A stretch of DNA of 64,000 nt from Okeania sp. SIO2B3 (GCF_010672525.1 NZ_JAAHGH010000039.1:41-64040); one strand, 5' to 3'. Counted from the first letter of the stretch, positions 9,684 through 44,497 are shown. Notes: generated from the sequence alone by a model not told the origin. Made by a program: numbers and translations.

Positions 9684-9748
9684 ATCCGGACATGATATAA
9701 GCCTAAAATATAACGATTGCTTTGGGATGTTCAGAGTTGACAACAGTT

Positions 9749-9925: not shown

Positions 9926-10233
9926 ACCAGTTATTTTACTGCCAAAATAACAGAGTTTCCCGTCAGTCAATTGCAATATTTGGAGGTTGGCGATCGTTGT
10001 GGTACAATAACTTAGATTTTTCCTTCTGCTTTGATTCAGTTGGAGTCATTTCCATTAGATGTAGTGATCAAATTACGGTCAAGCGATCGCTTGTTTCACC
10101 AACGTTGCTAAAGGTGATTATCCAGACTTGAGTTGACAGCGCTTTTCATATTGATCAACCACATCGTCACAATCACGCGGCCAGTAGGGATGTTCCATGG
10201 AACGTCCCTACTGTGGTCTACCCTGTATGATAA

Positions 10234-10539
10234 CTAGGGCTTGCTGATTAATTCTAAAAGTATTGACTGATATTGGTTTTAGCGTTTTAGAGTTGAAAAA
10301 AGTACCAGCTTTGTGGTGGAAAAAGCTCATGCATGCTAGTATTTTGGGACGATTATGGTAGAAAAATTGAGAGACAAAACGCCCGCTCCTACCTCCTCTA
10401 CATTCCCATTTCTCCTGTCTTCCCCTCCCCTCCTGGGAGGGGTTAGGGGTGGGTTGGGAGGGGCCCGCGGGTGGGTTGTCTCCAGTATAGCTGTCTCCTA
10501 CAAAAAGCAAAAAGACTTTCCATACGTAAACCCTAATTA
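10234..10539 (+). mobile_element. MITE family A copy 2
   Basis: CTAGGGCTTGCTGATTAA ... ACGTAAACCCTAATTA. The internal CCCCTCCCCTCCTGGGAGGGGTTAGGGGTGGGTT core is duplicated. It is followed by ATTATCGGGACATGGTATTA, a family-B-like end. Confidence 0.75.
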
Positions 10540-10599
10540 TCGGGACATGGTATTAAGTCTTAGCTAAAATCAACATTAAAATCTATCATTGATGGATGA

Positions 10600-12525: not shown

Positions 12526-12688
12526 ATTATGTCCAGATAATTAGTGATAGAAAACTTTCTCCTTCTCTTCCTCTTTCTTCCCTCCTGACTCGGTCCTTCC
12601 CTTCCCCTCCTGGGAGGGTTAGGGGTGGGTTGACTCCTGACTCCTACCTTCAAAATATTTTATACCGATATTACCGGACTTGATATTA
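12526..12688. mobile_element. MITE family B copy with embedded CCCCTCCTGGGAGGG core, abutting the stop codon of the nSTAND gene
   Basis: GATTATGTCCAGATAATTAGTGATAGAAAACTTTCTCC ... TTACCGGACTTGATATTA. Same layout as the 50844-51006 copy. Confidence 0.6.
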
Positions 12689-18200: not shown

Positions 18201-18310
18201 ACTTTTTTGATGAGGAAATCTAAATCTTCTTCTTCTCTAATTGCTCTAATTATGCTTTCTAAAGCAATCAAATTATTATGATTTTTTTTTGATTTATTTT
18301 TTTTGAACAT
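15299..18310 (-). CDS. Multi-GAF-domain sensor protein with a degenerate histidine-kinase-like C-terminus
   Basis: 1003 aa with several GAF-like blocks. The C-terminal HATPase-like region reads ...IYGDSIKLELVVYELLISACRR..., ISILDAGKI, PGKHLIICRRVIQQMGGELEL. Where the H-box is expected the sequence reads ELEWLNWYKQRRLEELY, with no His. Confidence 0.7.
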   Translation of the reverse strand: MFKKNKSKKNHNNLIALESIIRAIREEEDLDFLIKKVINYLQSEFDCCLIWVCLYDRLANKIVGKGGITPNGEISALKQKFTISHGDILEQVLMEIKAIKVADLRAEKQVGEWVKIAQTYQIKGTIFFPIHYKEKCFGIALIGSQEWGTSLESEEKALLSLIWGELGQTLQKIEKEWQQQQAKRPDEPILSLLSQLGKLTTLDQRLETVAEITHQFLQPSRTNIYWYYPNGRYFWRRASNHQVIVEWSDFKRPVSGITLQDLGEFYHVLLTGQIICIGEYYTSVDNDITRRLTRQIRASSVLAAPIILEDELLGFIAVEEQHNRPWQDDEKNYLQGVGQLLALTSPLSEMQDKIRQAKLDQTLTAGITRAIYGDDDWQKTLKTTAEKISQRLGAKYFMLTIRNGGQFEVVYQNHSTQSRTVKTALPPLSKEDMTLLERNAEVVGIENWSESHILGAWQEDFEKLGVRSLLLCSTIGAGKKEQEEFITKNQGDRYNQPEGLVIIGYETPRTWSRNERELVQIASQQLGFLLHQRHINQIINKQQQYMQYLQSGLTTLQPTTIQANSTKISIDPSNSLLLQEVKNLEPVGEQSVLGNLSLDHLERNFLEFIAQAIVEIAEINLQTIPLVGLITWYPVSQTGRVMSYSYPESHITSTEKISIPVRTDSWIQQIISTNGWLHLSVSDVPAKTLRWLNILDSGQVIATALRTAVEHQPTGILLLADPHKILWQKTQVPQPQNSPTETLKNLLTNLVSQFAWSRRYLIVKTTLESQREELEWLNWYKQRRLEELYRTVGSGFKQLSELHYTPSENPAQQKNVLTNLRYQQLLRQIGNVLSSTTSLLKQEKWRLQANFDVVSVANLLRRSLIRIDSLVKKRQLQLEVHREGNLNIYGDSIKLELVVYELLISACRRSQTGGKIDIKCQILDEEWLEISILDAGKISSKLIAEFNSASIPDVLEPSPLVSPPGKHLIICRRVIQQMGGELELNLQESGLVESKLLLPLAHL

Positions 18311-29470: not shown

Positions 29471-30859
29471 TTAAAAAACTGTTCCATCACTTTTTATTTT
29501 AATCGGAGGCGCACCATCTTTTCTTAATTCTTTTGCTATTTTTCGCCCTGCGGTCCATGTGCCACCTTGTAAGACTTTTACCAGTGGTAATTCTGAGGCA
29601 TTTAAGTTAAGTTTTTCTTGAATTACTTGAGCAACTTTGTCTAAAAGACTAATAGTTAGTGCTCTCCATTCTACAATAATTTCTGAGCCTGGTAAATGTT
29701 GTTGTTGTACAATCAAAGGATTTTTGATTTTTATTAGTTCCATGTCTATAAATAAGCCACCATTCCGATATTCTGCTAATCCAGTTAAATCATCTAATCC
29801 AATTATGTTTAAACCCAATTCTTGTAATGGTTCTAGCAATGAATATGTTAACCATTGAGATAATTTATGAAAAGGTATATATTCATCCCCCAAGCGATCG
29901 CTTTTGAGTAGAGAATGAGGCCAAACATCCCCTAAATTAATCCCTGAAATAGTACTGCGCCCTGGCCAAATATCACCTAATCCCTCCAATACAGTATTTA
30001 ATACTAAAGTAGCTTTAATTACTTCTTTATCTTTTCTGTTCTGTGGCGGGTTTAATACCCCACCATCTACACGGTGCTGAAAATTGTTTGGGGTTTGAGT
30101 CCATAAGCAATCTTTCCTTCTGCTTCCCCCCCTTTCAAAGGGGGGTAGGGGGGATACCTTCTTCCTTCTGCCTTCTTCAATGGCCTGATTTTGCCACAAA
30201 TAATCAACCATATTTCCTGGACGTGGACTATCAATGCCAAATAACTGAGAATTTTGATTTAACACTTGTCCCAAGCGTTGCAGCAATTCCAGACGACCTT
30301 CAAGACCCACCAAGGGATTTTCTGGACTAACTTGGAATCCTTGAGTTAAAGTCTGGACATCAATTTGGGAAAGTCCTCTAGTATCTGCTTGCCAGGGAAA
30401 ATCGGGATTACTAGAAAAAAAACCTTGGCAAAATAGTCGGAAACTACAAACTGCTAGACCTTCCGAACGACTAAATATTAAGCCAGTTTCAGGTTCAGTG
30501 TATTGCCAGTTTGCCCCGGCACCTGCATCTAGTAGTACACTAATAATGGCTAAATCAAATTTTACTTTGGCCTTTTCTACAGGCGTGAGTCCAGCCAACA
30601 TTTGGTCAAGTTCAGCTAGGCGAGGTATATCTCCTACTTGGAAATGTTGCCAACGACTATGGAAGGGTATGTTTAATGTGGGATAGCGATCGTAAATAAT
30701 ATTAATGACATAATTAGCACATTTATCTAGTTGAGTTAAATCGATTCGAAAATTATTGAGTTGGTCTTGACAAGCAAGATTAAATATGCGATTGCACCTT
30801 TCTCGAATGGCCTCGGGAGTTCTTAGATATGTAATAATTTCTGGGATTTTTTTATTCAT
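29471..30859 (-). CDS. DUF1688 (URC4-like) family protein carrying an in-frame repeat-derived insertion
   Basis: 462 aa, with length and conserved blocks typical of DUF1688. The segment EEGRRKKVSPLPPFERGGSRRKDC is encoded by heptamer repeats plus a CCCCCTTTCAAAGGGGGG palindrome at ~30113-30178. Confidence 0.65.
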   Translation of the reverse strand: MNKKIPEIITYLRTPEAIRERCNRIFNLACQDQLNNFRIDLTQLDKCANYVINIIYDRYPTLNIPFHSRWQHFQVGDIPRLAELDQMLAGLTPVEKAKVKFDLAIISVLLDAGAGANWQYTEPETGLIFSRSEGLAVCSFRLFCQGFFSSNPDFPWQADTRGLSQIDVQTLTQGFQVSPENPLVGLEGRLELLQRLGQVLNQNSQLFGIDSPRPGNMVDYLWQNQAIEEGRRKKVSPLPPFERGGSRRKDCLWTQTPNNFQHRVDGGVLNPPQNRKDKEVIKATLVLNTVLEGLGDIWPGRSTISGINLGDVWPHSLLKSDRLGDEYIPFHKLSQWLTYSLLEPLQELGLNIIGLDDLTGLAEYRNGGLFIDMELIKIKNPLIVQQQHLPGSEIIVEWRALTISLLDKVAQVIQEKLNLNASELPLVKVLQGGTWTAGRKIAKELRKDGAPPIKIKSDGTVF

Positions 30860-31023
30860 TAAAAGTCAGAGTTAAGGAATATAATATAAATAGTAAGCTA
30901 GAAAAAAACTATCACAAGCATGATGCTATTAAGCACAATTTAGTTGATGAGAAACTTGGATAGTTTCTTGTTAGTTTTTCTAAATTTAATTCAGCCAAAA
31001 ATCAGGTCAAAAATTCCCCAGTA

Positions 31024-31539
31024 ATGTCTAATCAAACTCACTTCAGTCAATCAGAAAAACAAGAGAATAATGTAGCTGTGGCTCTTGGTAGTAATCTCGG
31101 TGATTCTTTAACTATTCTCGAAAATGCAATCCAAACTTTATCAAAAACTCCAGGTATTACCTTAAAGACTTATTCTAGCTGGTATCGGACTAAACCTATT
31201 GGTCCAGAACAACCAGATTATCTCAATGGTTGTGCATTATTAAAAGTAGAATTAACACCCCATAAACTATTAGAAATTCTCTTAGATGTTGAACAACAAT
31301 TTAAGCGAGTACGTTTAGAACATTGGGGACCTAGAACTCTAGACCTAGACTTAATCTTATATGATGATTTAATATTAGATACTCCAAACCTGCAAATACC
31401 CCATCCTCGGATGAGAGAAAGAGCTTTTGTGCTTGTACCCCTAGCAGAAATAGCTCCTGACTGGATAGACCCAGTATCAGGAAAGGCGATCGCTCAACTT
31501 CTAGAAGAGGTAGAATGTGATGGAGTATCTAAACTTTAA
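31024..31539 (+). CDS. folK: 2-amino-4-hydroxy-6-hydroxymethyldihydropteridine diphosphokinase (HPPK)
   Basis: VAVALGSNLGDS, WGPRTLDLDLILYDD and IPHPRMRERAFVLVPLAEI. Confidence 0.88.
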   Translation: MSNQTHFSQSEKQENNVAVALGSNLGDSLTILENAIQTLSKTPGITLKTYSSWYRTKPIGPEQPDYLNGCALLKVELTPHKLLEILLDVEQQFKRVRLEHWGPRTLDLDLILYDDLILDTPNLQIPHPRMRERAFVLVPLAEIAPDWIDPVSGKAIAQLLEEVECDGVSKL

Positions 31540-31568
31540 ACTGGCAAGTTAAAATAGCGATTCTACTA

Positions 31569-32291
31569 ATGATTAAAAAAGCACTTGTTACAGGTTCAGC
31601 AGTGGGAATAGGCAGAGTGATCGCTCTAGACTTAGCTAGCAAAGGATTTGATGTAGCATTTCACTATAATAAAAGTGTAGAAGCAGCCAATCAAGCAAGT
31701 CAAGAAGCAACAAGCTACGGAGTCAAATCTATTGCTCTACAAGCAGATGTGACTAAACCAGAGCAAGCTCAGTCTCTTGTGGAAAATGCAGCAGAAAAAC
31801 TAGGAGGGTTATCTGTTGTAGTTAATAATGTGGGCAACTATTTGGAAAAACGAATCAGTCAAACATCTATAGAAGAATGGCATCAAATGCTTGATTCTAA
31901 CCTAAATTCCACTTTCTATGTTACTCAAGCAGCAATTCCTTACTTGAAAACAGCAGGGTGGGGACGTATCATTAACTTTGCCTTCGCTAGTGCCCAAAAT
32001 GTGATAGCAAGTAATATACAAACAGCCTATAGAGTTGCTAAGACTGGTATTATAATCTACACTAAGTCACTAGCTAAAGAGTTAATTAAGGACAAAATTA
32101 CTGCCAATGTCATTGCTCCAGGAGTCGCAGAAAATTCTGTTGGTTTAGACGAAAAAACTATCTCTCTCCTACCAAATAAACGACCCGCAACTTTAAAAGA
32201 AATCAGCAATGCAGTTGTTTTTTTTATCACTCCTGAAGCAGATTACATTACAGGACAAGTTTTGGAAGTAGCAGGGGGTATGAGATTGTAG
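31569..32291 (+). CDS. SDR family oxidoreductase (FabG / pteridine-reductase-like)
   Basis: 240 aa with TGSAVGIGR (TGxxxGIG), NNVG and YRVAKTG (YxxxK). Confidence 0.8.
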   Translation: MIKKALVTGSAVGIGRVIALDLASKGFDVAFHYNKSVEAANQASQEATSYGVKSIALQADVTKPEQAQSLVENAAEKLGGLSVVVNNVGNYLEKRISQTSIEEWHQMLDSNLNSTFYVTQAAIPYLKTAGWGRIINFAFASAQNVIASNIQTAYRVAKTGIIIYTKSLAKELIKDKITANVIAPGVAENSVGLDEKTISLLPNKRPATLKEISNAVVFFITPEADYITGQVLEVAGGMRL

Positions 32292-32469
32292 CTGTACATA
32301 GATTCCCTAGATTATGATTGCATAGATGTTTTGAAAGTAAGGCTGTAAACCCCTCCTCAACCCCCCCTACAAAAAGAGTTGTTCATAACAGCTATTCCTG
32401 GGCAATGGGAGTTAGTAGGGAATTTTGGCCAGACTGAAAATTACTATTTTTGATTACAGGAGTTGAACA

Positions 32470-33369
32470 ATGCTTACTCTAGCAGATATTTGCGAAGTGT
32501 ATGACAAACATCAGGATGACTACAATACCCAAGTTGAAGAATTCACTATTGGGAATAAAAAGTTTAACTTTAATTCTCAAACAGCGCTTTTAGGAATTAT
32601 TAATCTTTCCACTGATTCTTGGCATAATCACGCTATCTGTTACACCCCCGAACAAGCTATTGAGCGTGGCAAGGTTTTAACAGCTCAAGGTGCCGACATT
32701 ATAGATATTGGTGCGGAATCTAGTGTACCAAAGACACAAAGAGTTGATGAGTTTAAACAAAAAAGTTCACTTTTGCCTGTAATTGAAGCTCTTACTCAAG
32801 AAGGTGTATTGACTTCAGTTGAAACCTATTACCCTGAACTTGCAAGAATTTGTTTAAAAGCTGGTGCAAAGGTTGTTAACTTTACTGGAACTGAAAATAG
32901 TGAAGAAATGTATCGAGCTGTAGCTGATTTCGATGCAGCAATCATTATTTGTTACCTTCAAGAAAAAAACGTTAGAGATGTAAAGGACTTCGATTATACA
33001 TTAGCTAATGACCCAATAGATTTAGTCTATGATTATTTTGGCAAAGAGATAGAAAAAGCAACTAAACTAGGAGTCAAAAAAATTTTTGTAGATCCAGCAG
33101 TCGCTCTTCTTGGCCCTAGAAAAGAAGGTTTATATGCGTCAACTCAGATTAAATATCAAATCAGAAGCCTTTTAAATGCTTTTCGGCTAAGAAAATTAGG
33201 GTTTCCAGTTTTACATACGCTCTTCACTGCCAAAGAAATTTTTGGAGAAGAACTCAGAAGTGGTCAAGTTTTTACCTCAGTTTTTGCAGCATTAGGAAAA
33301 AATGATATGCTCAGAACTCACGAAGTTTCTAAAGTTAAAGCTGTTTTAGAGTGTATGAGTTTATTTTGA
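32470..33369 (+). CDS. Pterin-binding (dihydropteroate synthase-fold) protein, divergent
   Basis: 299 aa. It is collinear with the DHPS motifs, but they are altered: GIINLSTDSWHNHA, DIGAESSVPK, SVETYY, VVNFTG, VDPAVALLG and LRTHEV. Confidence 0.6.
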   Translation: MLTLADICEVYDKHQDDYNTQVEEFTIGNKKFNFNSQTALLGIINLSTDSWHNHAICYTPEQAIERGKVLTAQGADIIDIGAESSVPKTQRVDEFKQKSSLLPVIEALTQEGVLTSVETYYPELARICLKAGAKVVNFTGTENSEEMYRAVADFDAAIIICYLQEKNVRDVKDFDYTLANDPIDLVYDYFGKEIEKATKLGVKKIFVDPAVALLGPRKEGLYASTQIKYQIRSLLNAFRLRKLGFPVLHTLFTAKEIFGEELRSGQVFTSVFAALGKNDMLRTHEVSKVKAVLECMSLF

Positions 33370-33873
33370 CATCCTCCCCGGGGTTGACGCTTTGCTTCGC
33401 ATAGCTGTCGCTAACACAGGGTGCTGCTTCCTTGGCGGTAGTCTGATGCTTCCCTCCACGTCCGTTTAGAGTTTCCGTTAGCGTAGCTCCTCCGGAGGAG
33501 GCGTGCCCCCCGGCAACTAATAACAGTTTAGCATATATCCAATTCACTTGCATGCTCAAATAAAAAGTCGCCCTACAAGGGCGAGGCTTTAAACCCAATT
33601 TTTCGGTAAAAGTTTGGATGTTAAGATTTAGCTCACTCCATAGGAAGAATCCAAATTTTTGACGTTGGTGAATTGTAATGCTTTTGCCTCAAATATCTAT
33701 AGTTTTGCGGTTCATAAGTATTGAAGAGCATTACCTGATCGGCAACCCCAAATTTTTTAATCTCCCTCACTAAGAATAGGTTAGGAATGTCCGTCCGTTT
33801 TACAGCACAGAGGATGTCAAAATTTATCTCAGATAAAATTTGTACAACTTAATTTTTACCGAATAATTAATAC

Positions 33874-33962
33874 AGGACTTACGCAAAGACACTATTTATA
33901 GAGTAAATTAACTGTTGGACAATAGTTTTGAGTGTTATATATAGCATATCTGCGTAAGTCCT
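33874..33962. repeat. Hairpin element with 12-bp terminal inverted repeat AGGACTTACGCA / TGCGTAAGTCCT
   Basis: Read directly. A related element lies at 51377-51469, and solo ends occur near 9251 and 62911. Confidence 0.6.
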
Positions 33963-34160
33963 ATAATAATTAAATAATTCGCGCCTTGAAGCCTCCCTTT
34001 TTAAGGGAAAAAAAGCGGTCGATCTTCGTAGCTTCCCGAAGGGTGGGATGGATGGGTTTCCTAACCATATCCATGAGACTAAGATAAGAAATAATATTAC
34101 CTTATATTCAATTCCATAACGGTTTTAACCAGAGGTAATTATCAATTATTCATTAATGAA

Positions 34161-34907
34161 ATGGCTCCTAAATTTAGCTTAAGGACAATGATCAAAAAAT
34201 CACTTGTAACAAGTTCAGCAGTGGGAATAGGTAGAGCGATCACTCTCGACTTAGCAAGTAAAGTATTTGATGTAGCCTTTCATTATAACAAAAGCGTAGA
34301 AGCAGCCAACCAAGCAGCTCAAGAAGCAACTAATTATGGAGTAAAAGCGATCGTCAAACAAGCAGATATTACCAAACCCGAACAAGCTCAGTCTCTAGTC
34401 GAAAATGCAGCAGCACAATTGAGTGGTTTATCAGTAGTAGTTAATAATGTGGGTAACTACCTGAGAAAACCCATTAGCAAAACATCTATAAAAGAGTGGC
34501 AAGAAGTTATTAATTCTAACCTTAATGCCACTTTTTATATTACTAAAGCAGCACTTCCCTATCTCAAAGCAGCAAATGGCGCACGCATAGTTAATTTTGC
34601 TTGTGCCAGTGCCCAAAAAATGGCAGCACGCCAGACTAATACAGCTTATATAATTGCCAAAACTGGTATTATCATCTATACTAAATCATTAGCTGTGGAG
34701 CTAATAAAAGATAAAATTACTGTTAATGTAGTATCTCCTGGAGTCGCATAAAATTCTTGGGATATAGAAGAAATGATTCCTAAATAACCAGTTAAACGTC
34801 CAGCAAAGTTGACATAAATTAACCATGCTGTTTGGTTTTTTATTAACCCTAATTATAATTATATTACAGGGCAAGTTTTGGAAGTTTCTGGTGGTTGGAG
34901 TTTGTAG
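34161..34907 (+). pseudogene. Decayed paralog of the SDR gene at 31569-32291 (three in-frame TAA stops)
   Basis: It aligns codon by codon with the intact copy. GVAENSVG (gca gaa aat) becomes GVA*NSW (gca taa aat) at 34749. Two further TAA stops follow. The frame is retained to a shared C-terminus, YITGQVLEV(A/S)GG...L*. Confidence 0.8.
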
Positions 34908-34971
34908 TTATAATTTTTTTATCCAGATTTCTGAAAATTTATATTATTGATTATTTCAACATAAAATCACA

Positions 34972-35379
34972 ATGACATCAAATTCAGAAACTTGGATAAT
35001 AGGTAAAGAATTTAGATTTGAAGCTTCCCATCAACTACCTAATCATGATGGGAAATGTGCAAGATTACACGGTCATTCTTGGCGCGGCATTATTTATGTT
35101 TATGGTAATAAATTAGAAGATTCTGGATCAAAGCAGGGTATGATTATGGATTATGGAGATATAAAAAAATATCTAAAACCCCTACTTGATGATTATTTAG
35201 ACCATTATCACTTAAACGAAACTACAGGCTTAGTTAATCCTACTAGTGAAGCGATCGCTAAATGGATTTATGAGCAATTAGAAGATAAAATTCCTGGACT
35301 TGTAGCAGTTAGAATTGATGAAACTTGTACGAGTCAATGTATTTATTCAAAAGGAAAAAGTAATTTTTTGATTCTATAA
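34972..35379 (+). CDS. 6-pyruvoyl-tetrahydropterin synthase / 6-carboxytetrahydropterin synthase (PTPS/QueD family)
   Basis: 135 aa with EASHQLPNHDGKCARLHGHSW (the Cys plus HGH zinc and catalytic signature). Confidence 0.8.
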   Translation: MTSNSETWIIGKEFRFEASHQLPNHDGKCARLHGHSWRGIIYVYGNKLEDSGSKQGMIMDYGDIKKYLKPLLDDYLDHYHLNETTGLVNPTSEAIAKWIYEQLEDKIPGLVAVRIDETCTSQCIYSKGKSNFLIL

Positions 35380-35729
35380 AATTAGGAGCGCTATACTAAC
35401 TTATTACTCCTAAATTGGTTGTGATAAATTTGAGTGTATTTATTTTGTCAGCATTTCCTCCGGAATGCTGACAGCTGAATGCTTACTTTATTTTTTTCAG
35501 AAAAAATATTTTTTTGATGTTATGGAAGTTGCTATTTTATTAGGATTAATTTGGGGTAAATGATATTAGGTAAAGGCACTAAATTATTTGTAGTAGGCAA
35601 AAAATATAACCTTAGAAATATATAGTTTTTAGAACTAAAAATGCTTCAGTTATGTAAATTTAAATTAATTTGTCACAGGTACTTATGATTGGTAAGATTG
35701 CCAAATTATTACTATAAATAAATAACAAA

Positions 35730-37067
35730 ATGAAATTACTTAGTATATTCATTTTACTTAGTATCACTACTACCGTGTTGGCCTTGATAATCTTAAGTTT
35801 TCCCTGGAGACATCCCTTGCTCACAAACCTACAGATGAAATCTTTATTAGGTGCATTTCGGATATTATGGGGAATTTATTTTCGAGGCAAGTACAGTTAT
35901 ACTCAAGTCACCTTGATTGAGTCAGAAAAATATGTTTTACCAACAACATTAAAAGAGTTTGCCGATACTGAAAAAAATATCATCAGACAACCTTCTCGTC
36001 CAGTGGGCATGGAATATTTCTTTGCTGGTTTTGTCTACCCATTCTTACCCCTTGACTTAAGCGGTTCTGAGACCCCTAGTTGGCAGCGAATAATGCAGGG
36101 GTTTAAGGCCATTATGTCCCACTTCGAGCTTGAGGACAGATGTGGAGCGATCGCTACAACGCAAGTGTATAAGTTAACGAATTTAGAAGAAGAGTTAGTT
36201 ATAGATAACATTTTGCGTTGCTTGATTGTAGATATAATGTGGTGTGCTATTTTGGATGTTGAAACAAAGGATGATAGCTGGGAGTTAAATACTAAGCAAC
36301 TTCTATACAACCTGATTGAAGATATTTCCCTTTGCTTTACAGAAAATCTAGACCCTGACTGGAAACAACGTTTGGAATGGTGTAAACATCTTGCCCACTT
36401 CTTTGAAGAGGGTGGGAAAAATAGTAGCAATTTGGATTTTTTGGTTCAGTTAAGAATTACTTATTCTTTATCAATGCAAGAATGGTTAACAGCTATTGTT
36501 ATGGAATTTTTTGTCACCCCTGCTTTAGAAATTAGTGAGGTTATTACTAATATTTTTAAAGAATATGAAGACCATCCAGAAATTCTAGAACGTGCTGTTA
36601 AGGATAAGAAATATCTGAGAGCTGTGATTTTGGCAATAGCTTGTAAGTATCCTGTTCTAGAAAATATGTTTCGCGTAGCTGATGGTAAGGATGTGCCCTA
36701 TCATATTAATGTTGAAGTTGCTGATCAAACTGACTTACAATTTAATCCAGAAGATTTCTGCTCAAATAGTCCTCCCCCCTACCAATGGATCGGTTTTGGT
36801 AGTGGCCCTCGTGTTTGTAAGGGGCGTGTTCTGGCTATAAATATTATTGAATCTATAATAAAAGCTATCTACACCAAGTTTGAGGGATGGCCTAAAATGG
36901 AAATTAGCAGTGGTAGGCGGGTACATCCTAGTGTTTCGTTAGATGAGCGATTTTTACGTCTTTATGGCAGGGCATGGGTTGGCCGTGTTTTTTATAGGAT
37001 AGATAAAGTCATCCGACCTTCTTGCCCTCCTGCTCGCTTATATTTACCAGATTCTCTTTTTTCCTGA
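35730..37067 (+). CDS. Cytochrome P450-like protein, divergent, with an N-terminal membrane anchor
   Basis: 445 aa. The heme-thiolate loop is FNPEDF...WIGFGSGPRVCKGRVLA (FxxGxRxCxG). The N-terminus is hydrophobic (LLSIFILLSITTTVLALIILSF). I could not find I-helix or ExxR motifs in canonical form. Confidence 0.55.
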   Translation: MKLLSIFILLSITTTVLALIILSFPWRHPLLTNLQMKSLLGAFRILWGIYFRGKYSYTQVTLIESEKYVLPTTLKEFADTEKNIIRQPSRPVGMEYFFAGFVYPFLPLDLSGSETPSWQRIMQGFKAIMSHFELEDRCGAIATTQVYKLTNLEEELVIDNILRCLIVDIMWCAILDVETKDDSWELNTKQLLYNLIEDISLCFTENLDPDWKQRLEWCKHLAHFFEEGGKNSSNLDFLVQLRITYSLSMQEWLTAIVMEFFVTPALEISEVITNIFKEYEDHPEILERAVKDKKYLRAVILAIACKYPVLENMFRVADGKDVPYHINVEVADQTDLQFNPEDFCSNSPPPYQWIGFGSGPRVCKGRVLAINIIESIIKAIYTKFEGWPKMEISSGRRVHPSVSLDERFLRLYGRAWVGRVFYRIDKVIRPSCPPARLYLPDSLFS

Positions 37068-37093
37068 TTAGGTTCAAGCTATAGCGCTGCGCG

Positions 37094-37252
37094 CAGGCAA
37101 CAGGCAACAGGCAACAGGCAACAGGCAACAGGCAACCCACCCCTCGCCCCTCCCCCTCCCAGCTATCCCTGATAAGGAACTCCTGAAACCCTTGTAGGAA
37201 GGTGGGGAAGAGGGGGAAGAGGGGGAAGAGGGGGAAGAGGGGGAAGAGGGGG
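37094..37252. repeat. STRR-type arrays: (CAGGCAA)6 at 37094-37135, a GGGAGGGG-family core, and (AAGAGGGGG)5 at 37208-37252
   Basis: Units counted directly. Confidence 0.9.
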
Positions 37253-37490
37253 AAGTAAGAATTTTGTCTACAGTCCTCACACTTGCGTGTATTTTTCAAT
37301 ACAATTTTCTCCCGAAAAAGCCGCTCTTAGACTTACACATAACTTGTCTTTTTTGTCTACGTTTTATGTTAAGAAAGATGTTTATAAAGCATAGCCCTCC
37401 CAGGAGGGGAAGAAAAAGCGGATAATATAAAACTTTTAGTTATTGGACAATTCCTGTAATTTGTAAATATGCCAGCGCACATTGCTATAC

Positions 37491-37734
37491 AACCCACATT
37501 CCGCACCACAAAATGTAGCATAAACATATAAGTCAAAAGTCAAAAGTAAGAAATAAAAGTAAAGTGGTCAATAGGAGTCAACGATTTAGTAAGTATTTAT
37601 GCTGAATATTTAACTGACAATTTGACTCTTGATAAAGGTAAATGAAGATAATTTATATAGTATCTGTACCTAAGCAAGCTACGGATTTTATACTAACTTT
37701 CATGTTACAAATTGAAGTGCGGAATATGGGATTA
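37491..37734 (-). mobile_element. MITE family C copy B, inverted relative to copy A
   Basis: AACCCACATTCCGCACCACAAAATGTAG ... ATGTTACAAATTGAAGTGCGGAATATGGGATT. Confidence 0.7.
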
Positions 37735-37839
37735 AAAATTTGACAAAATGGGTATTGTATGATTTTTGGAGATGGCGATCGCTATGCCAATCAGCAGTAT
37801 AAGATATACTAAAAGGTTAGAGGCTAGGGAATTAAAAAA

Positions 37840-38439
37840 ATGGTCAACCAAAAACAACCTATCTTAAATAACGATGAAGTTAAACAACTTTTTATTAAAG
37901 GCGTTAACATTTTTTTAGCAGGGTCAGCAATTGCATTAGTATTTGGATTTATGATTTGGTTTGTCCATGGAACTATTATGGTTTCTGACCTATCAGAGAA
38001 AATTGTTGCTAAAGGTTGGGGTGCTTTAATTGCACTAATGGCTGTATTTTTATCTTTTATTGTACCTTCAATTGTTACTCTTTTCGGATTTGCGGTAATG
38101 GCATTATTGGTGTGGTGGTTATCTCGGGTTTTTTCCCAATATGAAGAATTTCAACCTACTGCTTTAATTGTTTATCAATTAGTAGCACCTGTGGGAATGA
38201 TAGCTGCTTTAATATTAGCTTCACCAGTGTTGATTTCCTATGCAGTTATTCGTTTATTTAATGGTAGTGGACAAGCATTAATTTCGGAAGTGAAAGAAGC
38301 ATCAAGTATTCTCTTGCCACTTGAATCTGATAATAAATTTATGAGTGGAACTCCAGCAGTTGAAACTCAATATTTAACAAGGGAAAAATTGATGAGTGAA
38401 ACTCAAGTTAAAACTCAATATTTAGAAGGAGAAAAATAA
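37840..38439 (+). CDS. Hypothetical integral membrane protein
   Basis: 199-aa ORF with about four long hydrophobic segments. I recognise no family motif. Confidence 0.5.
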   Translation: MVNQKQPILNNDEVKQLFIKGVNIFLAGSAIALVFGFMIWFVHGTIMVSDLSEKIVAKGWGALIALMAVFLSFIVPSIVTLFGFAVMALLVWWLSRVFSQYEEFQPTALIVYQLVAPVGMIAALILASPVLISYAVIRLFNGSGQALISEVKEASSILLPLESDNKFMSGTPAVETQYLTREKLMSETQVKTQYLEGEK

Positions 38440-38444
38440 TTGTT

Positions 38445-39941
38445 TTATTTCGGACGTTTAATTCCACCTTTACGTTTAACTTCAAAACCATATCTATAAA
38501 TATCTGGCATATTAATTCGCCGATCTGAGTGACGAATTTCCACAATACCTAATTGTTCTAAGTATTTTAAAATTTCTTGGGGTTTTTTAGAAGGTGGTTC
38601 TTGATTCCATTCTGTCTTTTTTAGTAACTTGAGAAATTTTTCTTCTTCAGTTAGAAGTGTTAAACCTTTGAGTTCTTCTCTTAAAGCATCTAACCAGGGG
38701 TATTCTTCCTTTGTAAGTTCTTCTATTCGATCTTGAGAAGTATCCATTAAAGCTCCTTGTAAGTCAGAAGGTTCTAATAAGCAATTTTCTGCTAAATCTT
38801 TTTCGTCAAATTTTTCTAATCTACGTTTTGCTGCTAAGGAGAATAGCTTTAAAAAAGAGCGTGGAGCAATGCTACGTTTTGCATCTTGAAGGTGATTAGG
38901 AATCCAATTATAAGTGTAACCTTTTCTAGAATTATTGCCCATAAATACTCCGACAATTTTTTCCATTAATAATTTAAAACAAGACTCATCTGATGCTGGC
39001 AATATGCCTAGTGTTTCATCCTTTTTTGAAGTTAAACCAGGAACTATTTGTAAATAATCATTCATTTCTTTTCTAGAGTTAGCTAAACGCTTAACAAATA
39101 CTTGATATAACCATGAAGTTTTCCACTCTAAACTAATTTTATGTCCACTGAGTTTAGAAGCATCTGGAAATCCTAAAAAATTTTCTCCAAATAAATCTGT
39201 GCGTAGAAATATTTTGGGTCTAATTCGTTCCCAACGACGCCATCTATCTAGCCAAAATGCTAATAGTTCGGCGATAGGAGCGCCCAGTTTTATATAAGAA
39301 GGAACAATTCGATCTAGTTCATCATAAGTGATAAATAACCAGCGGTCGCTTGCCAACAATTCCTCATCTAATTTATCCAAAGCATAGTTGATACTTTCAA
39401 AGTTCTGGTGAGCATCTGGAAACCAGCGGGAAAGTAATGATAAATTTTTAGTTAAACTATCTCGAATTTCCTCTGGTATTTCCTCACCCCAACTATGATT
39501 TGATAATTCTTTTTCTTGCTGAAATATTACTCCTACTATTAATCCTATCCAAAAAATACGCCAATCAATTCTATCCTTGTCTTTCATGTATTTTTCTGTT
39601 ATTTCTGGTGCAGGAAATTTTTTTTCCCCAGTCTTAGTACGACCATATCCAGCAATCCATATTGTTCTTTCTAAAGGGGGTAAACCTCTAATATTTAAGT
39701 TTTTTACTAAAGCTTGACGACCAGGAGAGTTTGCTAGTAAACGAAAAAATTCTGTTTTACCAACACCTCTACCACCTAATATTAAAAATGTGTCAACTTC
39801 CAAAGCCATTCGGTAGTTAGGTAAGGGTAAAAAATTTTTGAGGAATATCTTTTCATCATTACTTTCATGTTCAGCTCTACCTTCTCCTGGTGCAACATTA
39901 GCCATAATTTCTAATAGCTTTTTTTTATCAAAGTTAGTCAT
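38445..39941 (-). CDS. P-loop NTPase (Sll1717-like family) with a basic C-terminal wHTH-like tail
   Basis: 498 aa. Walker A is FLILGGRGVGKTEFF and Walker B is RWLFITYDELDRI. The C-terminus reads LEQLGIVEIRHSDRRINMPDIYRYGFEVKRKGGIKRPK. It starts 14 nt after the upstream gene ends. Confidence 0.7.
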   Translation of the reverse strand: MTNFDKKKLLEIMANVAPGEGRAEHESNDEKIFLKNFLPLPNYRMALEVDTFLILGGRGVGKTEFFRLLANSPGRQALVKNLNIRGLPPLERTIWIAGYGRTKTGEKKFPAPEITEKYMKDKDRIDWRIFWIGLIVGVIFQQEKELSNHSWGEEIPEEIRDSLTKNLSLLSRWFPDAHQNFESINYALDKLDEELLASDRWLFITYDELDRIVPSYIKLGAPIAELLAFWLDRWRRWERIRPKIFLRTDLFGENFLGFPDASKLSGHKISLEWKTSWLYQVFVKRLANSRKEMNDYLQIVPGLTSKKDETLGILPASDESCFKLLMEKIVGVFMGNNSRKGYTYNWIPNHLQDAKRSIAPRSFLKLFSLAAKRRLEKFDEKDLAENCLLEPSDLQGALMDTSQDRIEELTKEEYPWLDALREELKGLTLLTEEEKFLKLLKKTEWNQEPPSKKPQEILKYLEQLGIVEIRHSDRRINMPDIYRYGFEVKRKGGIKRPK

Positions 39942-39955
39942 TTTCCTACCTGATT

Positions 39956-41326
39956 TTATTTCTTCAATTTACGCTGACAAATACTGCAAAGTCTTTCTGC
40001 AAGTTCTTGATAAGGTTTACCTGTTAAAACATTAATAATATTTGACAAACGACGCTCCTCATCCGGAGTAGAATCTCGCTCAAATAAACTTATTTCTTTA
40101 CGCAAATCACTTTGCCAATCTATAATTATTGGGTAAAAATTAGCTTCTAGATCGTTGGAGTTAGGAACATCTTCTTCCCTATAGTAATTTTTTTGAAAAA
40201 CAATGTAAGCTTGCTCTCGAAAATCTCTAAGTTCCTGCTCCATTCCTGGTACACCTAATCCCGGAGCTAGAGCATGGACAAGCAAAACTGGCAGCGGTTC
40301 AGGAGCTAAAGGTCTTGCTAGACGACGAATAACATGAGTTAAACCTTTCCAACTTTGACGAGATTGAGTGCCAAAAATGACTGCTGCATGGGATAAGTCA
40401 GCGATCGCCAGTCCACCAAGATCGTGAAACCCGGTTCTGGTATCTAGCAAAATAAAGTCTAACTTTCCCACTGCATTAAGTTCTTTGAACATATTTTGCC
40501 AGGTTTCTAGCAGTTGATTATTAGCGTTGAGCAAATTTTGAAAATCTAGTCTTGCCAACTTTTCCAGATAGTTATCGTCCACGCTACCAGCTCCCAGTAA
40601 ACTCAAACTCTCTCCGGTATCTCCCAACAATTTCGGCTCGTTGACTAATTTCAAATGAGTGCGGAGTTTCCAGTTTTTACTCTGGATATTTTTCTCTAAC
40701 AAATAATCGATCACCCCAGGAATGCTCTCCTCTGATGCAGAGGAGAAAACAGTCGATAGACCAGGAGATTCTAAATCTAAATCGACTATAGCTATACGAT
40801 GACCATGACGAGCCAATGTCAGAGCCGTTGCTACTAATGTTGTTGTGCGACCAACTCCACCCTTAAAGGAAAAAAATGAAACTATTGCTGGTTTGTGCCC
40901 TTCATCTACCACTTTCTGCGACCAAGGAGGCTGACCTACATTTTTATTTGTCCATGCTTGCTTCGCTACATGACGCTCTAACACATACCAATGAGGTTTA
41001 TTTCCATCATCCCATTCTGCCAAAACCCTTTCTTGACAGATGACATCAATCAAGGCTTTATAACCATCTTTTTCGCCCTGTGGTAGCCAAATATCTTCGC
41101 CATAGTAGTTGCCAAGTGTTTTCCTCAGCGAGTTTTCTAGGTCATTTAGGATATCATCTTCTAGCTTACTGTTATTTAAAGGTTCCAGAAAAATCCTAAT
41201 TTTCCCCACAACATCCCGAATTATAGTTATGGATTCTAGATTTTGTGTTAGTTTGTCTTTTATGGGAGATTCCGCAAAACATTCCCGCACTTTTTCAAAT
41301 GTTGCACTGAAAGTTATATCAATCAT
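39956..41326 (-). CDS. ParA/MinD-like (SIMIBI) NTPase with a variant Walker A (KGGVGR) and an unassigned ~150-aa N-terminal domain
   Basis: 456 aa. It shows IVSFFSFKGGVGRTTTLVATALTLARHGHRIAIVDLDLESPGL and ILLDTRTGFHD. Its ATG (41326-41324) directly follows the TAG stop of the HEPN gene. Confidence 0.75.
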   Translation of the reverse strand: MIDITFSATFEKVRECFAESPIKDKLTQNLESITIIRDVVGKIRIFLEPLNNSKLEDDILNDLENSLRKTLGNYYGEDIWLPQGEKDGYKALIDVICQERVLAEWDDGNKPHWYVLERHVAKQAWTNKNVGQPPWSQKVVDEGHKPAIVSFFSFKGGVGRTTTLVATALTLARHGHRIAIVDLDLESPGLSTVFSSASEESIPGVIDYLLEKNIQSKNWKLRTHLKLVNEPKLLGDTGESLSLLGAGSVDDNYLEKLARLDFQNLLNANNQLLETWQNMFKELNAVGKLDFILLDTRTGFHDLGGLAIADLSHAAVIFGTQSRQSWKGLTHVIRRLARPLAPEPLPVLLVHALAPGLGVPGMEQELRDFREQAYIVFQKNYYREEDVPNSNDLEANFYPIIIDWQSDLRKEISLFERDSTPDEERRLSNIINVLTGKPYQELAERLCSICQRKLKK

Positions 41327-41752
41327 CTAAATTTCCCCACTGGAAATTCTGCCATCCAAAATTAATCTAGGAATAATCTCATTATAGATTTTTCCAGCTC
41401 GTTTAACTGCCTCTATTGCTTGACTTTCACACCATAAGTCTGACTTGGCATAGCGTCGCTCTGGATGATCGTCCGCTAAGACTGTCCCGTTTGTACGCGA
41501 AATTGGTAGTTGAGTATCAAGAATGGGATACATTACCCGTAACCTCTCAACAGCTTTGCCTTGAAGTTCTGTTAAATCATGGCCGAATTTGCTACAAGCT
41601 TGATTTTGAATATATTGCTCTACTATAACTTTAAAAGCACATTCTACCACATAACCTGCCAAATAAACAGCATTATCCCAACGATTTTGAGCCAGTAAAA
41701 TTTCTGCATCATGTAAATGCCTTTCCGCAGCTTGAATAAATGAATCTTCCAT
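41327..41752 (-). CDS. HEPN domain protein
   Basis: 141 aa. The pattern AERHLHDAEILLAQNRWDNAVYLAGYVVECAFKVIV ... GHDLTELQ ... HPERRYAKSD..ESQAIEAVKRAGKIYNEI matches the four-helix HEPN layout (helix 1, A.E.alK, tHDL..L, RY). Confidence 0.7.
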   Translation of the reverse strand: MEDSFIQAAERHLHDAEILLAQNRWDNAVYLAGYVVECAFKVIVEQYIQNQACSKFGHDLTELQGKAVERLRVMYPILDTQLPISRTNGTVLADDHPERRYAKSDLWCESQAIEAVKRAGKIYNEIIPRLILDGRISSGEI

Positions 41753-41755
41753 GTT

Positions 41756-43003
41756 TTAATCAGCTAAATTTCTCCCTTTAATCTCTGACAAAACATTCTC
41801 ATCCGGCACCTCCCCATCTGTATAATAACCCGCCGCTTTCTTCGCCGCAATTTCCACTTGCGCATCTTCTGGCACCAAGTCATCAGGAATAGGTACTCGC
41901 TCTACTATCTCAATGCCAGAATTAACAATAGCATTATATTTCATATCGCTCATCGACACCAAACGGTCAATCTTACTCACACCCAACCAATGCAAAACAT
42001 CTGGCATCAATTCCTGAAACCTCATATCTTGTACCCCCGCTACACATTCAGTCCGAGCAAAATAAGCATCCGCGCGATCGCCTCCTTCCTGTCTTTTCCG
42101 AGCATTGTAGACCAAAAATTTAGTCACTTCTCCCAATGCTCTCCCCTCTTTACGGAAATAAACTATCACACCGACTCCTCCCTCTTGCGCTGTCTGAATA
42201 CAAACTTCAATGCCATGCACCAAATAGGGGCGACAAGTACAAATATCAGAACCGAAAACATCTGAACCGTTACACTCATCGTGAACCCTGACTGCCAATT
42301 TTTTAGTAGGGTCAGAAACATCAGCAACATTTCCGACTATATATACTGTCGTACCACCAATAGGAGGCAAAAATAAATGTAAATCTGGGCGCGTTACCAA
42401 CTCTGGGAACATTCCACCCATTTGTTGAAACAACACCCGACGCAAGTCACTTTCTTCCACATTCAGTCGTTTAGCAATTCCTGGCAAATGCCAAACCGGG
42501 TCGATCGCTGCTTTTGTTACCAATAAATTGCCATTATCTTTAACAATATTACCATCAACTTTCAATACACCCCTAGCAACAGCATCCTGTAATTCTGGCA
42601 TATTAATATTTGCCTTCGTGACTGCAATAGTAGGTCGGATATCGTATCCCTGCTCATAGTAAGATGCAAAAACTTCTTCCACTACCGCCCCCCAAGGATC
42701 GAGACAGACAATTTTATCGGGGTTATACCAGCTCCGATGAGGTCCAATGCGTTCTGCTGGAGCAGTATTAGTCAAGTCAGCACGGTGATTTGATTGTAGT
42801 TTACCAGAAGCGATCGCCAAAGCACGATAAACAGCATAAGAACCGGAGTGAGTACCAATCACATTACGATGCTTAGGATTACTCAAAGACCCGATGGCAG
42901 GTCCCCGCTCTATGGGGTCTTGAGCGCCCCACTGCACCGGAATAGTTTTTTTGTCCGCAGGACCAGGATGAGATGTTAATACAATATGTTTATGCTTTGC
43001 CAT
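41756..43003 (-). CDS. GTP cyclohydrolase II-like protein of the URC1 type
   Basis: 415 aa with VRVHDECNGSDVFGSDICTCRPYL, VIVYFRKEGRALGEVTKFLVYNARKRQEGGD and DMRFQELMPDVLHWLGV. It is a GCH-II fold with the long N-terminal extension typical of URC1 homologs. Confidence 0.65.
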   Translation of the reverse strand: MAKHKHIVLTSHPGPADKKTIPVQWGAQDPIERGPAIGSLSNPKHRNVIGTHSGSYAVYRALAIASGKLQSNHRADLTNTAPAERIGPHRSWYNPDKIVCLDPWGAVVEEVFASYYEQGYDIRPTIAVTKANINMPELQDAVARGVLKVDGNIVKDNGNLLVTKAAIDPVWHLPGIAKRLNVEESDLRRVLFQQMGGMFPELVTRPDLHLFLPPIGGTTVYIVGNVADVSDPTKKLAVRVHDECNGSDVFGSDICTCRPYLVHGIEVCIQTAQEGGVGVIVYFRKEGRALGEVTKFLVYNARKRQEGGDRADAYFARTECVAGVQDMRFQELMPDVLHWLGVSKIDRLVSMSDMKYNAIVNSGIEIVERVPIPDDLVPEDAQVEIAAKKAAGYYTDGEVPDENVLSEIKGRNLAD

Positions 43004-43272: not shown

Positions 43273-44497
43273 ATGAATTATATTAATCGTCGTCAATTTA
43301 TTAAGTATAGTAGCCTCGCTATTAGTACCAGCATATTAACAAGTTGTGCTACTCCTAACAACTCCAATTATACTGCTGAAAATAACAAAAATCTTGACAA
43401 AGTAACCTATGGAACTAATTGGTATGCTCAAGGCGAACATGGAGGCTTTTATCAAGCAATTGCTACAGGTATTTATGAAGATTATGGATTAGATGTTACT
43501 ATTAAAATGGGCAATGCTCAGGTGAATGGAACTCAGCTATTAGTAGGAGGAGCAATTGACTTTTATATGGGGGTTTGGTATAGAGGCAATTAGTTCTGTA
43601 GAAGCTGGAATTTCTACCATTACAGTTGCAGCTATTTTCCAAAAATACCCCCAAGTATTAATTGCTCATCCAGGAGTCGGAAATGACTCTTTAGAACAAC
43701 TAAAAGGCAAGCTTATTTTAGTATCCTCTTTATCCGAAAAAGCTTACTGGCGGTTTCTTTATACGAAGTTAGGTTATACAGACGACCAAAGACGTCCTTA
43801 AAATTTTAGTGTAGCTCCATTTTTACTAGATAAAAATGTAATTCAACAAGGTTATCTAACTTCTGAACCTTTTACAATTGAGAAAAAAGGAGGCTTTAAA
43901 CCTGTCGTTATATTATTAGCAGATTATGACTATCAACCTTACGCTACTACTATAGCAAAAACAACAAAAATGGTAGAAAATAATCCCGATTTAGTGCAGA
44001 GATTTGTCGATGCTTCAATTAAAGGTTGGTATAGTTATTTAGAAAATCCTGAACCAGCTAATCAATTAATCAAAAAATATCATCCATAAATGACAGATGA
44101 GTTATTAGTTTATAGCTTAGAAAAAATGAAATAATATGGCATTATTATTTCTGGATATGCTGTAACAAAAGGTATTGGTGCAATGACCGATGAACGGTCA
44201 TTTCAGTTATCAGTTATCAGTTATCAGTTATCAGTACCTCTGCCTGTTTGCGCAGCATTCCGTAGGAAAGTCAGAGGCTTGAAATATTGAACTTGATTTT
44301 TTTTAATCCCCTTGTAGAGCGGTAGCTCGCGGCGCAGCCAAGGGGAGGCTTCAGACCTTATTTTTTGGTGAAAATAATTCTTTGATACTGTTTTAGAAAC
44401 TGGAGTAATTAAGCCAGATACTAACTATAAAAAAGCTTTAACTTTACAATTTGTTAATCGAGGAGTAGAAGCATATAATTCAACAATCAACAATTAA
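43273..44497 (+). pseudogene. ABC transporter substrate-binding protein (NMT1/THI5-like), inactivated
   Basis: The lipoprotein-like N-terminus is ISTSILTSCAT. The lesions are a frameshift near 43570, in-frame TAA stops at 43799, 44087 and 44132, and a ~140-bp STRR/repeat insertion (~44204-44345). A recognisable C-terminus resumes afterwards (...ALTLQFVNRGVEAYNSTINN*, ending at 44497). Confidence 0.75.
44204..44231. repeat. STRR heptamer array (CAGTTAT)4 inside the dead substrate-binding gene
   Basis: Counted directly. Confidence 0.9.

Follow-up and report, generated by a model that had tools for sequence, protein, structure and literature searches.

An intact copy of the candidate defence cassette PDC-M28 in the marine cyanobacterium Okeania sp. 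SIO2B3

Layout of the cassette and its place in PDC-M28

Okeania sp. SIO2B3 is a marine filamentous cyanobacterium, and the present analysis concerns a 64,000-nucleotide (nt) stretch of its genome (GCF_010672525.1 NZ_JAAHGH010000039.1:41-64040), referred to below as the window. Positions 38445-41752 of the window hold a compact cassette of three open reading frames (ORFs), all on the minus strand, which we call genes A, B and C in the order in which they are read. Gene A encodes a protein predicted to have a HEPN fold, gene B a putative ParA/MinD-type ATPase with an altered P-loop, and gene C a predicted AAA+ ATPase of the Sll1717 type (Table 1). The trio is an intact member of the candidate family PDC-M28, and it has thus already been catalogued and is not a new discovery. 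The three proteins match all three models of this family in PADLOC-DB v2 (A against PDLC04558, 9.2e-14, residues 1-50 only; B against PDLC04559, 5.6e-60, residues 4-424; C against PDLC04561, 4.5e-78, residues 1-497), and the gene order fits the cassette definition FAM_01482>>FAM_02546>>FAM_01036 on one strand, an assignment that is based on model matches and gene order rather than on PADLOC's own pipeline thresholds. In kind, the trio is no different from PDC-M28, and the shortness of the match in A probably reflects the fast divergence of this protein. The original prediction, which was made from the sequence and which this work followed up, had not recognised the trio as any named system and had listed a match to one among the results that would speak against it; on this point it was wrong, and its own caveat partly applies.

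PDC-M28 corresponds to cassette CAS_00115, which comprises three families with a count of 121 (Payne et al., bioRxiv 10.1101/2024.01.29.577857). It is one of 145 "phage defence candidates" that were predicted from their embedding in BREX, DISARM and type I restriction-modification (RM) loci, and its published description is one line of a supplementary table (2024, bioRxiv 10.1101/2024.01.29.577857). Full-text literature searches returned no paper whose text names PDC-M28, "KGGVGR" or "Sll1717", while the NCBI annotation already names B and C by their NCBIfam families.

The tight packing that was originally described is accurate to the base. Genes A and B lie in the same frame with a 0-nt gap, the sequence reading "...gaaatt TAG ATG att...", while the junction of B and C reads "TAA aatcaggtaggaaa ATG" and thus contains a 14-nt spacer, whose counterparts range from -4 to +20 nt in most of the 59 related loci described below. 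The trio consists of three co-inherited, translationally coupled proteins. As was also predicted, the cassette contains no methylase, reverse transcriptase, Cas protein or second nuclease. What had been missed is the GTP cyclohydrolase II gene immediately upstream, which stops 3 nt ahead of the ATG of gene A. Promoter and terminator scans found neither a terminator nor a convincing promoter between the two, and promoter-like matches occur solely upstream of the GTP cyclohydrolase II gene (43304-43277), at a frequency equal to background. Given the 3-nt gap, the lack of a terminator and the position of the promoter-like matches, the trio in SIO2B3 is probably transcribed from the side of this neighbouring gene.

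Table 1. Features of the PDC-M28 cassette and its immediate context, in window positions
Feature	Position	Strand	Size or basis
Gene A, HEPN-fold protein, predicted (PDC-M28A)	41327..41752	-	141 aa (amino acids), ORF list
Gene B, putative KGGVGR-variant ParA/MinD-type (SIMIBI) ATPase (PDC-M28B)	39956..41326	-	456 aa
Gene C, predicted Sll1717-type AAA+ ATPase, ORC/Cdc6-BrxC type (PDC-M28C)	38445..39941	-	498 aa
Gene A, conserved R11/H12	41717-41722	-	ortholog alignments
Gene A, conserved G57/H58	41579-41584	-	ortholog alignments
Gene A, conserved R100/Y101	41450-41455	-	ortholog alignments
Gene B, N-terminal domain, residues 1-145, private to the family	40892..41326	-	diverse alignment
Gene B, deviant Walker A KGGVGRT; signature Lys155 retained, canonical P-loop Lys replaced by Arg160	40844..40864	-	translation check
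Gene B, switch I-like DLDLESPG	40760-40783	-	conserved in alignments
Gene B, Walker B-like ILLDTRTG	40430-40453	-	conserved in alignments
Recombination breakpoint inside gene B, near residue 325, ~40350	40300..40400	.	sliding-window identity, blastn
B-C spacer aatcaggtaggaaa, with ribosome-binding-site-like AGGTAGGA inside	39942..39955	-	sequence read
Gene C, Walker A GGRGVGKT	39753-39776	-	translation check
Gene C, Walker B YDELD	39312-39326	-	translation check
Gene C, sensor-like KIFLRTDL	39192-39215	-	conserved in alignments
Gene C, predicted C-terminal winged-helix-like module and flexible basic tail (...GFEVKRKGGIKRPK)	38448..38654	-	alignment and model
GTP cyclohydrolase II gene, PRK07198 type (context, outside the system)	41756..43003	-	NCBIfam NF005536, 756 bits

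Three predicted proteins: an Arg-P-loop ATPase, an ORC/BrxC-like ATPase and a HEPN protein

The family calls of the original prediction hold for all three proteins, each of which scores above the model cut-off in hidden Markov model searches, and the motifs that it quoted (KGGVGRT, GGRGVGKT and YDELD) translate at the sites given for them. Gene B matches the NCBIfam model NF047398 (AAA_KGGVGR) with 181.1 bits (cut-off 90) over residues 146-336 and is also above cut-off on the Pfam models AAA_31, CbiA and ParA. Its matches to PDB sequences, namely ArsA, Soj, ParF and MinD, are confined to the P-loop region, and it falls far under the cut-offs of the NCBIfam equivalog models for ParA and MinD. 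On the strength of its sequence, gene B is thus assigned to the ParA/MinD-type (SIMIBI) ATPases. With the dimerising members of this class (ParA, MinD and ArsA), it shares the signature Lys and the Asp residues of switch I and Walker B, but it differs from ParA and MinD in having Arg in place of the P-loop Lys in every complete member and in carrying a private N-terminal domain of 145 aa. It differs as well in its partner, which is an AAA+ protein rather than one of the ParB, MinE or ParG type, and partition-site repeats are absent. The substitution of the Walker A Lys, noted at the outset, is real: KGGxGR[ST] is present in 73 of the 76 gene B orthologs, the other three being truncated or lacking the motif, and Lys occupies the P-loop position in none. 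The remaining nucleotide-site residues (K155, D182/D184 in switch I and D295 in Walker B) are conserved in the orthologs, with the switch following the pattern DLDLE.PG and the Walker B strand the pattern hhhDxRxG. The conservation of these switch I-like and Walker B-like motifs suggests that gene B still binds nucleotide.

The N-terminal domain of gene B resisted assignment in the original prediction and continues to do so, as profile searches find no relative in Pfam, NCBIfam or the PDB, even with a 16-sequence cross-phylum profile. Three of its residues (D38, R118 and W125) are invariant across phyla. Among 1.84 billion proteins, it appears in just 57 representative clusters, and nearly all of its carriers have it at the N-terminus of proteins of ~430-465 aa. 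Outside the trio, the KGGVGR ATPase forms the N-terminus of 780-1060-aa proteins with long arrays of tetratricopeptide repeats (TPR) (loci L075, L077, L078, L079 and L080; ~8000-11000 each). These other members of NF047398 share the Arg-variant ParA-like ATPase with gene B, but they are single chains of STAND-like architecture and lack the N-terminal domain. At these loci, tblastn detected neither an A homolog nor a C homolog of full length.

Gene C matches the NCBIfam model NF047389 (ATPase_Sll1717) with 100.3 bits (cut-off 75) over residues 19-485; it has no Pfam match even at E<=1, and sequence and profile searches of PDB chains yield no match beyond the P-loop. The family is characterised by a Walker A of the form GxxGxGKT, a Walker B of the form YDxLD and a sensor-like KIFLRxDL strand. 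An AlphaFold2 (AF2) model of gene C (predicted local distance difference test score, pLDDT, 86.6; predicted template modelling score, pTM, 0.86) retrieves the BREX ATPase BrxC as the best Foldseek match (9zdx/9zll, E 3.6e-6), followed by archaeal ORC2/Cdc6 (1w5t/1w5s/1fnn), eukaryotic ORC1/Cdc6, HslU and TnsC, with a probability of 1.0 to BrxC, ORC2 and Cdc6. ORC/Cdc6 proteins, which are full-length structural matches of gene C, end in a winged helix. A tail resembling a winged helix-turn-helix (wHTH) had been proposed for gene C, and it is supported both by these matches and by the secondary structure of the model, which has a helix at residues 454-464, a strand at 475-477 and a helix at 480-486 before pLDDT falls below 50 for residues 493-498. 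Within the basic tail, R490, G492 and G493 are invariant across phyla. Based on the model, gene C is a predicted ORC/Cdc6/STAND-like AAA+ ATPase with a C-terminal winged helix.

The architecture predicted for gene C, in which a winged helix comes after an AAA+ core of the ORC/Cdc6/STAND-like kind, would be shared with BrxC of BREX and with DUF499/HmaC, although the additional C-terminal modules of BrxC and DUF499 proteins (a triad of wHTH, alpha+beta and wHTH; a coiled coil or an RRM) cannot fit into the 498 aa of gene C (PMC12839542). BrxC-like DUF499 ATPases of BREX-related systems are often fused to an N-terminal HEPN domain (PMC12839542), which is the same pairing of HEPN and ORC-like ATPase as in the trio, and both the self-association of BrxC and its DNA binding are regulated by ATP (PMC13326643). 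The systems are nevertheless distinct. BREX and Hma have no ParA-like component, whereas the trio has no methyltransferase, PglZ or helicase. The trio proteins do not match the PADLOC models for BrxC or Hma, and the partners that define those systems (PglZ and methyltransferase in one, methyltransferase and helicase in the other) are absent from the cassette and from its flanks in the window.

Gene A matches the Pfam model HEPN (PF05168) with E 1.9e-6 and 28.5 bits (cut-off 22) over profile positions 4-113 of 117, and it weakly matches the AbiV model. Sequence and profile searches of PDB chains find no relative of gene A. The HEPN fold survives structure prediction: with the AF2 model (pLDDT 81.8, pTM 0.81), the top Foldseek matches in the PDB are all HEPN proteins (1wol, 2hsb, 2q00, 1ufb, 1o3u, AbiV, Csm6 and sacsin), with a probability of 1.0 and template modelling (TM) scores up to 0.73. 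They include ST0689, AF0298 (TM 0.71), SsR10 (TM 0.73), TT1696 and TM0613. On this modelling evidence, gene A is predicted to be a classical four-helix HEPN protein. Eight of its residues (H12, D15, E37, K41, G57, H58, R100 and Y101) are invariant across phyla and R11 is nearly so, giving the classical A.E..K / GHxL / RY pattern. Both fold and pattern are shared with the classical HEPN proteins of PF05168 (ST0689, AF0298, TT1696 and TM0613), with the HEPN proteins of HEPN-MNT pairs and with AbiV. Classical stand-alone HEPN proteins are nucleotide-binding. In HEPN-MNT toxin-antitoxin pairs, however, the partner is a minimal nucleotidyltransferase, whereas gene A is accompanied by two NTPases (NTP, nucleoside triphosphate). 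None of the three trio proteins or their neighbours matches a nucleotidyltransferase family in Pfam and NCBIfam profile searches, and inspection of the N-terminal domain of gene B shows no G[SG]...DxD pattern.

The original prediction had cast gene A as an RNase effector of the HEPN class, and on this point it is not supported. The Rx4-6H motif is not found in the gene A family: R100 itself never varies, yet S, D, L and W occupy positions +4 to +7, and no conserved His follows R100 among the 12 to 67 orthologs aligned. The chemistry of gene A, which may be that of a non-canonical RNase or of a nucleotide or RNA binder, is therefore the weakest link of the model proposed below.

Spread, neighbourhood and mosaic evolution of the trio

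To trace the trio, relatives of gene B were collected by scanning one genome per GTDB species, 80 of 118 were kept, and A, B and C were resolved at their loci (numbered with the prefix L) by tblastn and ORF extraction. As the original prediction had anticipated, the three families co-occur beyond this genome. Genes A, B and C lie in the same order and on the same strand in at least 59 fully resolved loci from more than six phyla, down to 26-37% identity, and in the large majority of these loci the intergenic gaps are 0-16 nt or the genes overlap by 4 nt. The carriers include Cyanobacteriota, Alicyclobacillus (Bacillota), Acidobacteriota, Planctomycetota, Myxococcota, Bacteroidota and "Deltaproteobacteria", with Pseudomonadota also listed. 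With identical order, strand and tight gaps in 59 independently fetched loci, the arrangement is far past chance. The genes that flank the trio, by comparison, are common only to Okeania and Trichodesmium, which argues that the three genes form a mobile unit. Copies from Alicyclobacillus and Heliomicrobium are 53-57% identical to cyanobacterial ones, and Anabaena sp. UHCC 0187 carries two copies on different scaffolds (L024 and L034).

A homolog of gene C is present on 21 plasmids, and the full three-gene arrangement lies beside or near integrases on three of them, namely a 22.9-kb plasmid of Paraburkholderia, a conjugative IncF plasmid of Enterobacter and a plasmid of Calothrix. The first two are distant relatives (L081, 3180-6383, Paraburkholderia pOLGA3; L082, 3053-6383, Enterobacter bugandensis conjugative IncF plasmid pSurvcare220) that adjoin tyrosine recombinases and insertion sequence (IS) elements; their C proteins are 27-30% identical to that of the window, and hhalign gives probabilities of 96% for A and 99.9% for B. 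A search of complete Escherichia coli genomes found no stretch homologous to the enterobacterial version.

Two kinds of natural fusion inform on the assembly of the proteins. In Candidatus Angelobacter (L076, 7611-10355), a 915-aa protein joins the B ATPase (hhalign 99.2%) to a near-full-length C (97.9%); it lacks the basic KRKGG tail and is preceded by a 140-aa, weakly HEPN-like ORF. Two metagenomic proteins, P0373 (907 aa) and P0390 (918 aa), were considered as further B-C fusions and rejected, as they are tandem B-B proteins with two KGGVGR P-loops per chain. These tandems parallel the pseudo-dimer of ArsA and imply that B works as a dimer.

Comparison of Okeania strains by sliding-window identity, blastn and protein identities shows the cassette to be mosaic (L001 and L003). 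From ~41603 to 40351, a segment spanning most of A and residues 1 to ~325 of B, the DNA is 98-100% identical to that of Okeania SIO3B5, while from 40350 to 38557, a segment that completes B and takes in C up to ~110 nt before its stop, it is 98.5-100% identical to that of Okeania SIO2C9. Compared to other Okeania strains, nt identity reaches only 70-80% in A and the N-terminal half of B. The GTP cyclohydrolase II gene shows an even 92-96% identity to its counterparts in the three strains that have it (L001, L002 and L005), and SIO2C9 (L003) has no copy of it upstream of its cassette. This shuffling of alleles and the excess diversity in A and the N-terminal domain of B would fit a conflict system, and the concentration of diversity in these two parts suggests that they co-adapt.

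The surroundings of the cassette in the window do not bear out the "repeat-rich accessory stretch" of the original prediction. The trio sits inside a pterin/folate-type cluster (29471-43003), which it interrupts, with TerD and methyltransferase genes next to it; encoded in this cluster are DUF1688, HPPK, two SDRs, a DHPS-like protein, a QueD/PTPS-like protein and a weak P450-like ORF, with the GTP cyclohydrolase II, which contains a GTP_CH_N domain, on the other side of the trio. We take the DUF1688 protein to be of the URC4 family and the GTP cyclohydrolase II to be of the URC1 type. Just 3 of the 34 other ORFs in the window match PADLOC models, all of them the generic "mad2", and placement of the cassette in an accessory or defence island is not supported in this genome. 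Repeats in the window are limited to three short tandem arrays (37094-37255 and 38335-38437). Perfect CAGGCAA x6 and GGGGAAGAG x5.8 occupy the gap after the P450-like ORF, and a 48-nt unit x2.1 lies at the 3' end of a convergent membrane-protein gene, just past the stop of gene C.

Two neighbours were considered as additional components and rejected. One is the convergent membrane-protein gene downstream (37840-38439), a neighbour of the cassette in Okeania and Trichodesmium alone. For the GTP cyclohydrolase II gene, linkage to the trio is restricted to the single lineage of Okeania; Trichodesmium and a related bin keep only a 3' remnant of approximately the last 48-100 codons ahead of gene A (L006, L010, L051 and L054), and the homology of their DNA to the window begins ~150-175 nt upstream of the gene A ATG. 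This remnant points either to decay of the gene or to an upstream control region that is conserved and travels with the cassette.

Elsewhere, the trio is at times found among defence genes, and the embedding by which PDC-M28 was defined is reproduced in our loci. In L052, drmMI and drmA of a DISARM system enclose it, with every gene on the same strand, and in L070 its neighbours are Septu PtuAB, type I HsdS and an OLD/HEC-01-like ATPase. It also adjoins a mad3/mad8-like ATPase (L047), and the genes that flank it on the Calothrix plasmid are a type III res gene, a DUF450 gene and one for an integrase.

Three further loci in the window lie apart from the cassette. Between the GTP cyclohydrolase II gene and terD, two overlapping short ORFs of 106 and 81 aa (43273-43801) resemble a frameshifted gene for a lipoprotein or substrate-binding protein and are probably a pseudogene. 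Roughly 24 kb from the trio, a 725-aa "novel STAND NTPase 1" protein lies beside a 1003-aa GAF-domain protein (12686-14863 and 15299-18310), a pair that may be another conflict or signalling locus. Finally, 3078-9062 encodes a 1994-aa hybrid nonribosomal peptide synthetase/polyketide synthase module that combines condensation, adenylation, KR and carrier domains with a docking domain of the TubC type.

Possible function of the trio and competing explanations

The reading that we favour, and to which we give about an even chance of being right, is that the trio is a mobile, NTP-switched module directed against invaders, with roughly the division of labour outlined here, which would provide immunity or abortive infection against invading DNA. 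The obligate linkage of the three genes, their mobility and patchiness, their embedding in defence loci, the B-C and B-B fusions and the mosaic evolution all point in this direction, and the NTP-gated abortive infection of the original prediction remains plausible for the trio. Nucleotide-driven dimerisation activates other HEPN nucleases (RNase L/Ire1 and PrrC), and peptides of ParB, MinE and ParG act on ParA-type ATPases. By analogy to BrxC and ORC, C would be a nucleic-acid-binding, ATP-regulated sensor and switch, using its AAA+ core and winged helix, and it would contact B physically, the two being fused in one lineage. B would serve as a dimerising adaptor that forms nucleotide-sandwich dimers, as the B-B tandems and ArsA suggest, and the Arg in its P-loop may render it slow in hydrolysis and hence give a long-lived signalling state. 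The invariant basic tail of C (KRKGG) may activate B in the manner of the ParB, MinE and ParG peptides. The private N-terminal domain of B, which is co-inherited with A, would hold A, such that closure of the B dimer pairs two HEPN subunits, leading either to attack on RNA or to binding of a nucleotide ligand and arrest of the infected cell.

The logic of this scheme, in which HEPN dimerises or becomes active under the control of a nucleotide-binding domain, is shared with the NTP-gated HEPN nucleases PrrC/RloC and RNase L/Ire1, with which we compare the trio from general knowledge. Those proteins, however, combine an NTP-binding domain and a HEPN domain in one chain and have a canonical motif, whereas the trio has separate genes, NTPases of the ParA and ORC types and a non-canonical motif. 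PrrC also occurs embedded in type I RM loci. A stronger form of the same reading would make PDC-M28 a new class of immune switch, in which an ORC/BrxC-like DNA reader with a ParB-like tail acts on an Arg-P-loop ParA dimer that assembles a HEPN site from R11, H12, H58 and R100, so that a partition logic gates an RNase; we consider this rather unlikely.

Several observations weigh against a defence function of this design. In the window, and at the majority of the 32 loci with scanned surroundings, the neighbours are housekeeping genes (among them CobN, GH57 and P-type ATPases elsewhere), and defence neighbours occur at only a minority of loci. No copy of the trio was found in phage genomes or IMG/VR contigs, and a literature search found no published experiment on any PDC-M28 member. 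The gene A family lacks the catalytic His of Rx4-6H, so its role as an RNase effector is an assumption. The contact between A and B, the role of the C tail and the effect of the Arg P-loop are matters of inference. The structural matches have limits of their own, as the TM scores of gene C are low (0.3-0.44) and the Foldseek E-values of gene A are weak (>=0.02), although the latter would be expected of a small helical bundle and the list of matches is coherent. Lastly, the mosaic is derived from metagenome-derived assemblies.

The missing Rx4-6H motif and the altered P-loop of B also allow a different allocation of roles, in which B is the effector, an "inactive" mimic of MinD/ParA that is freed or activated by C and poisons host division or segregation, while A is a regulator or sensor that binds nucleotide or RNA. 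MinD/ParA-like domains that are predicted to be inactive have been reported as effector modules of NTP-dependent conflict systems, which are found preponderantly in multicellular prokaryotes (Kaur et al. 2020, PMC7159879). The universal replacement of the canonical P-loop Lys by Arg in B would fit such a mimic, and a binding role for A would fit its nearest structural relatives, the classical stand-alone HEPN proteins. The strict retention in B of the signature Lys and of the Asp residues in switch I and Walker B argues instead for a working switch rather than a dead mimic, and the eight or more invariant polar residues of A suggest that it has an active or ligand site of its own. Fusion of the KGGVGR domain to TPR arrays outside the trio might be counted in favour of an effector, but in those proteins the ATPase occupies the position of the STAND NTPase switch and not that of the effector. 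On balance, we judge this explanation unlikely.

A second alternative takes the resemblance to ParA at face value and views the trio as a partition or maintenance module of mobile elements, with B and the DNA-binding C positioning or stabilising the element and A acting as an addiction toxin. The winged helix and basic tail of C, which recall ParA-activating peptides, and the plasmid copies beside integrases and IS elements are in line with this idea. Its consequences fit the loci poorly, however: the copies are mostly chromosomal, the 3-nt upstream gap leaves no space for an array of centromere-like repeats, the AAA+ partner greatly exceeds the known ParB and ParG adaptors in size, and copies are found inside a DISARM operon and in a Septu/RM island. 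High allelic diversity and mosaicism also suit conflict better than segregation, and we find a maintenance role improbable. A housekeeping role tied to the pterin and GTP cyclohydrolase II genes, such as regulation of the pathway as a four-gene Okeania operon, might be read from the 3-nt gap without a terminator, the placement within the DUF1688, HPPK, DHPS-like, PTPS and SDR cluster and the retention of this arrangement in several Okeania genomes, but it is largely refuted and has a very slight probability, as the linkage is confined to Okeania, with only the 3' remnant in Trichodesmium and the related bin, and is seen at none of the ~50 other loci nor on plasmids, while the trio itself is spread patchily over many phyla, plasmid copies included.

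For this window, the finding adds one more instance of a catalogued candidate, here in a metabolic neighbourhood. The favoured reading, a mobile anti-invader switch, is open to experiment: the residues to mutate are defined, the B-C and B-B fusions predict a complex, and an enterobacterial plasmid version exists for which E. coli is a naive host. If that reading is true, the trio would offer a minimal three-protein setting for how ORC/BrxC-like ATPases, which are poorly understood in BREX, sense and signal, and it would reveal the action of a HEPN protein that lacks Rx4-6H as well as the purpose of a natural Lys-to-Arg P-loop. Should PDC-M28 work as a defence system, a ParA-type ATPase would join the list of immune switches.

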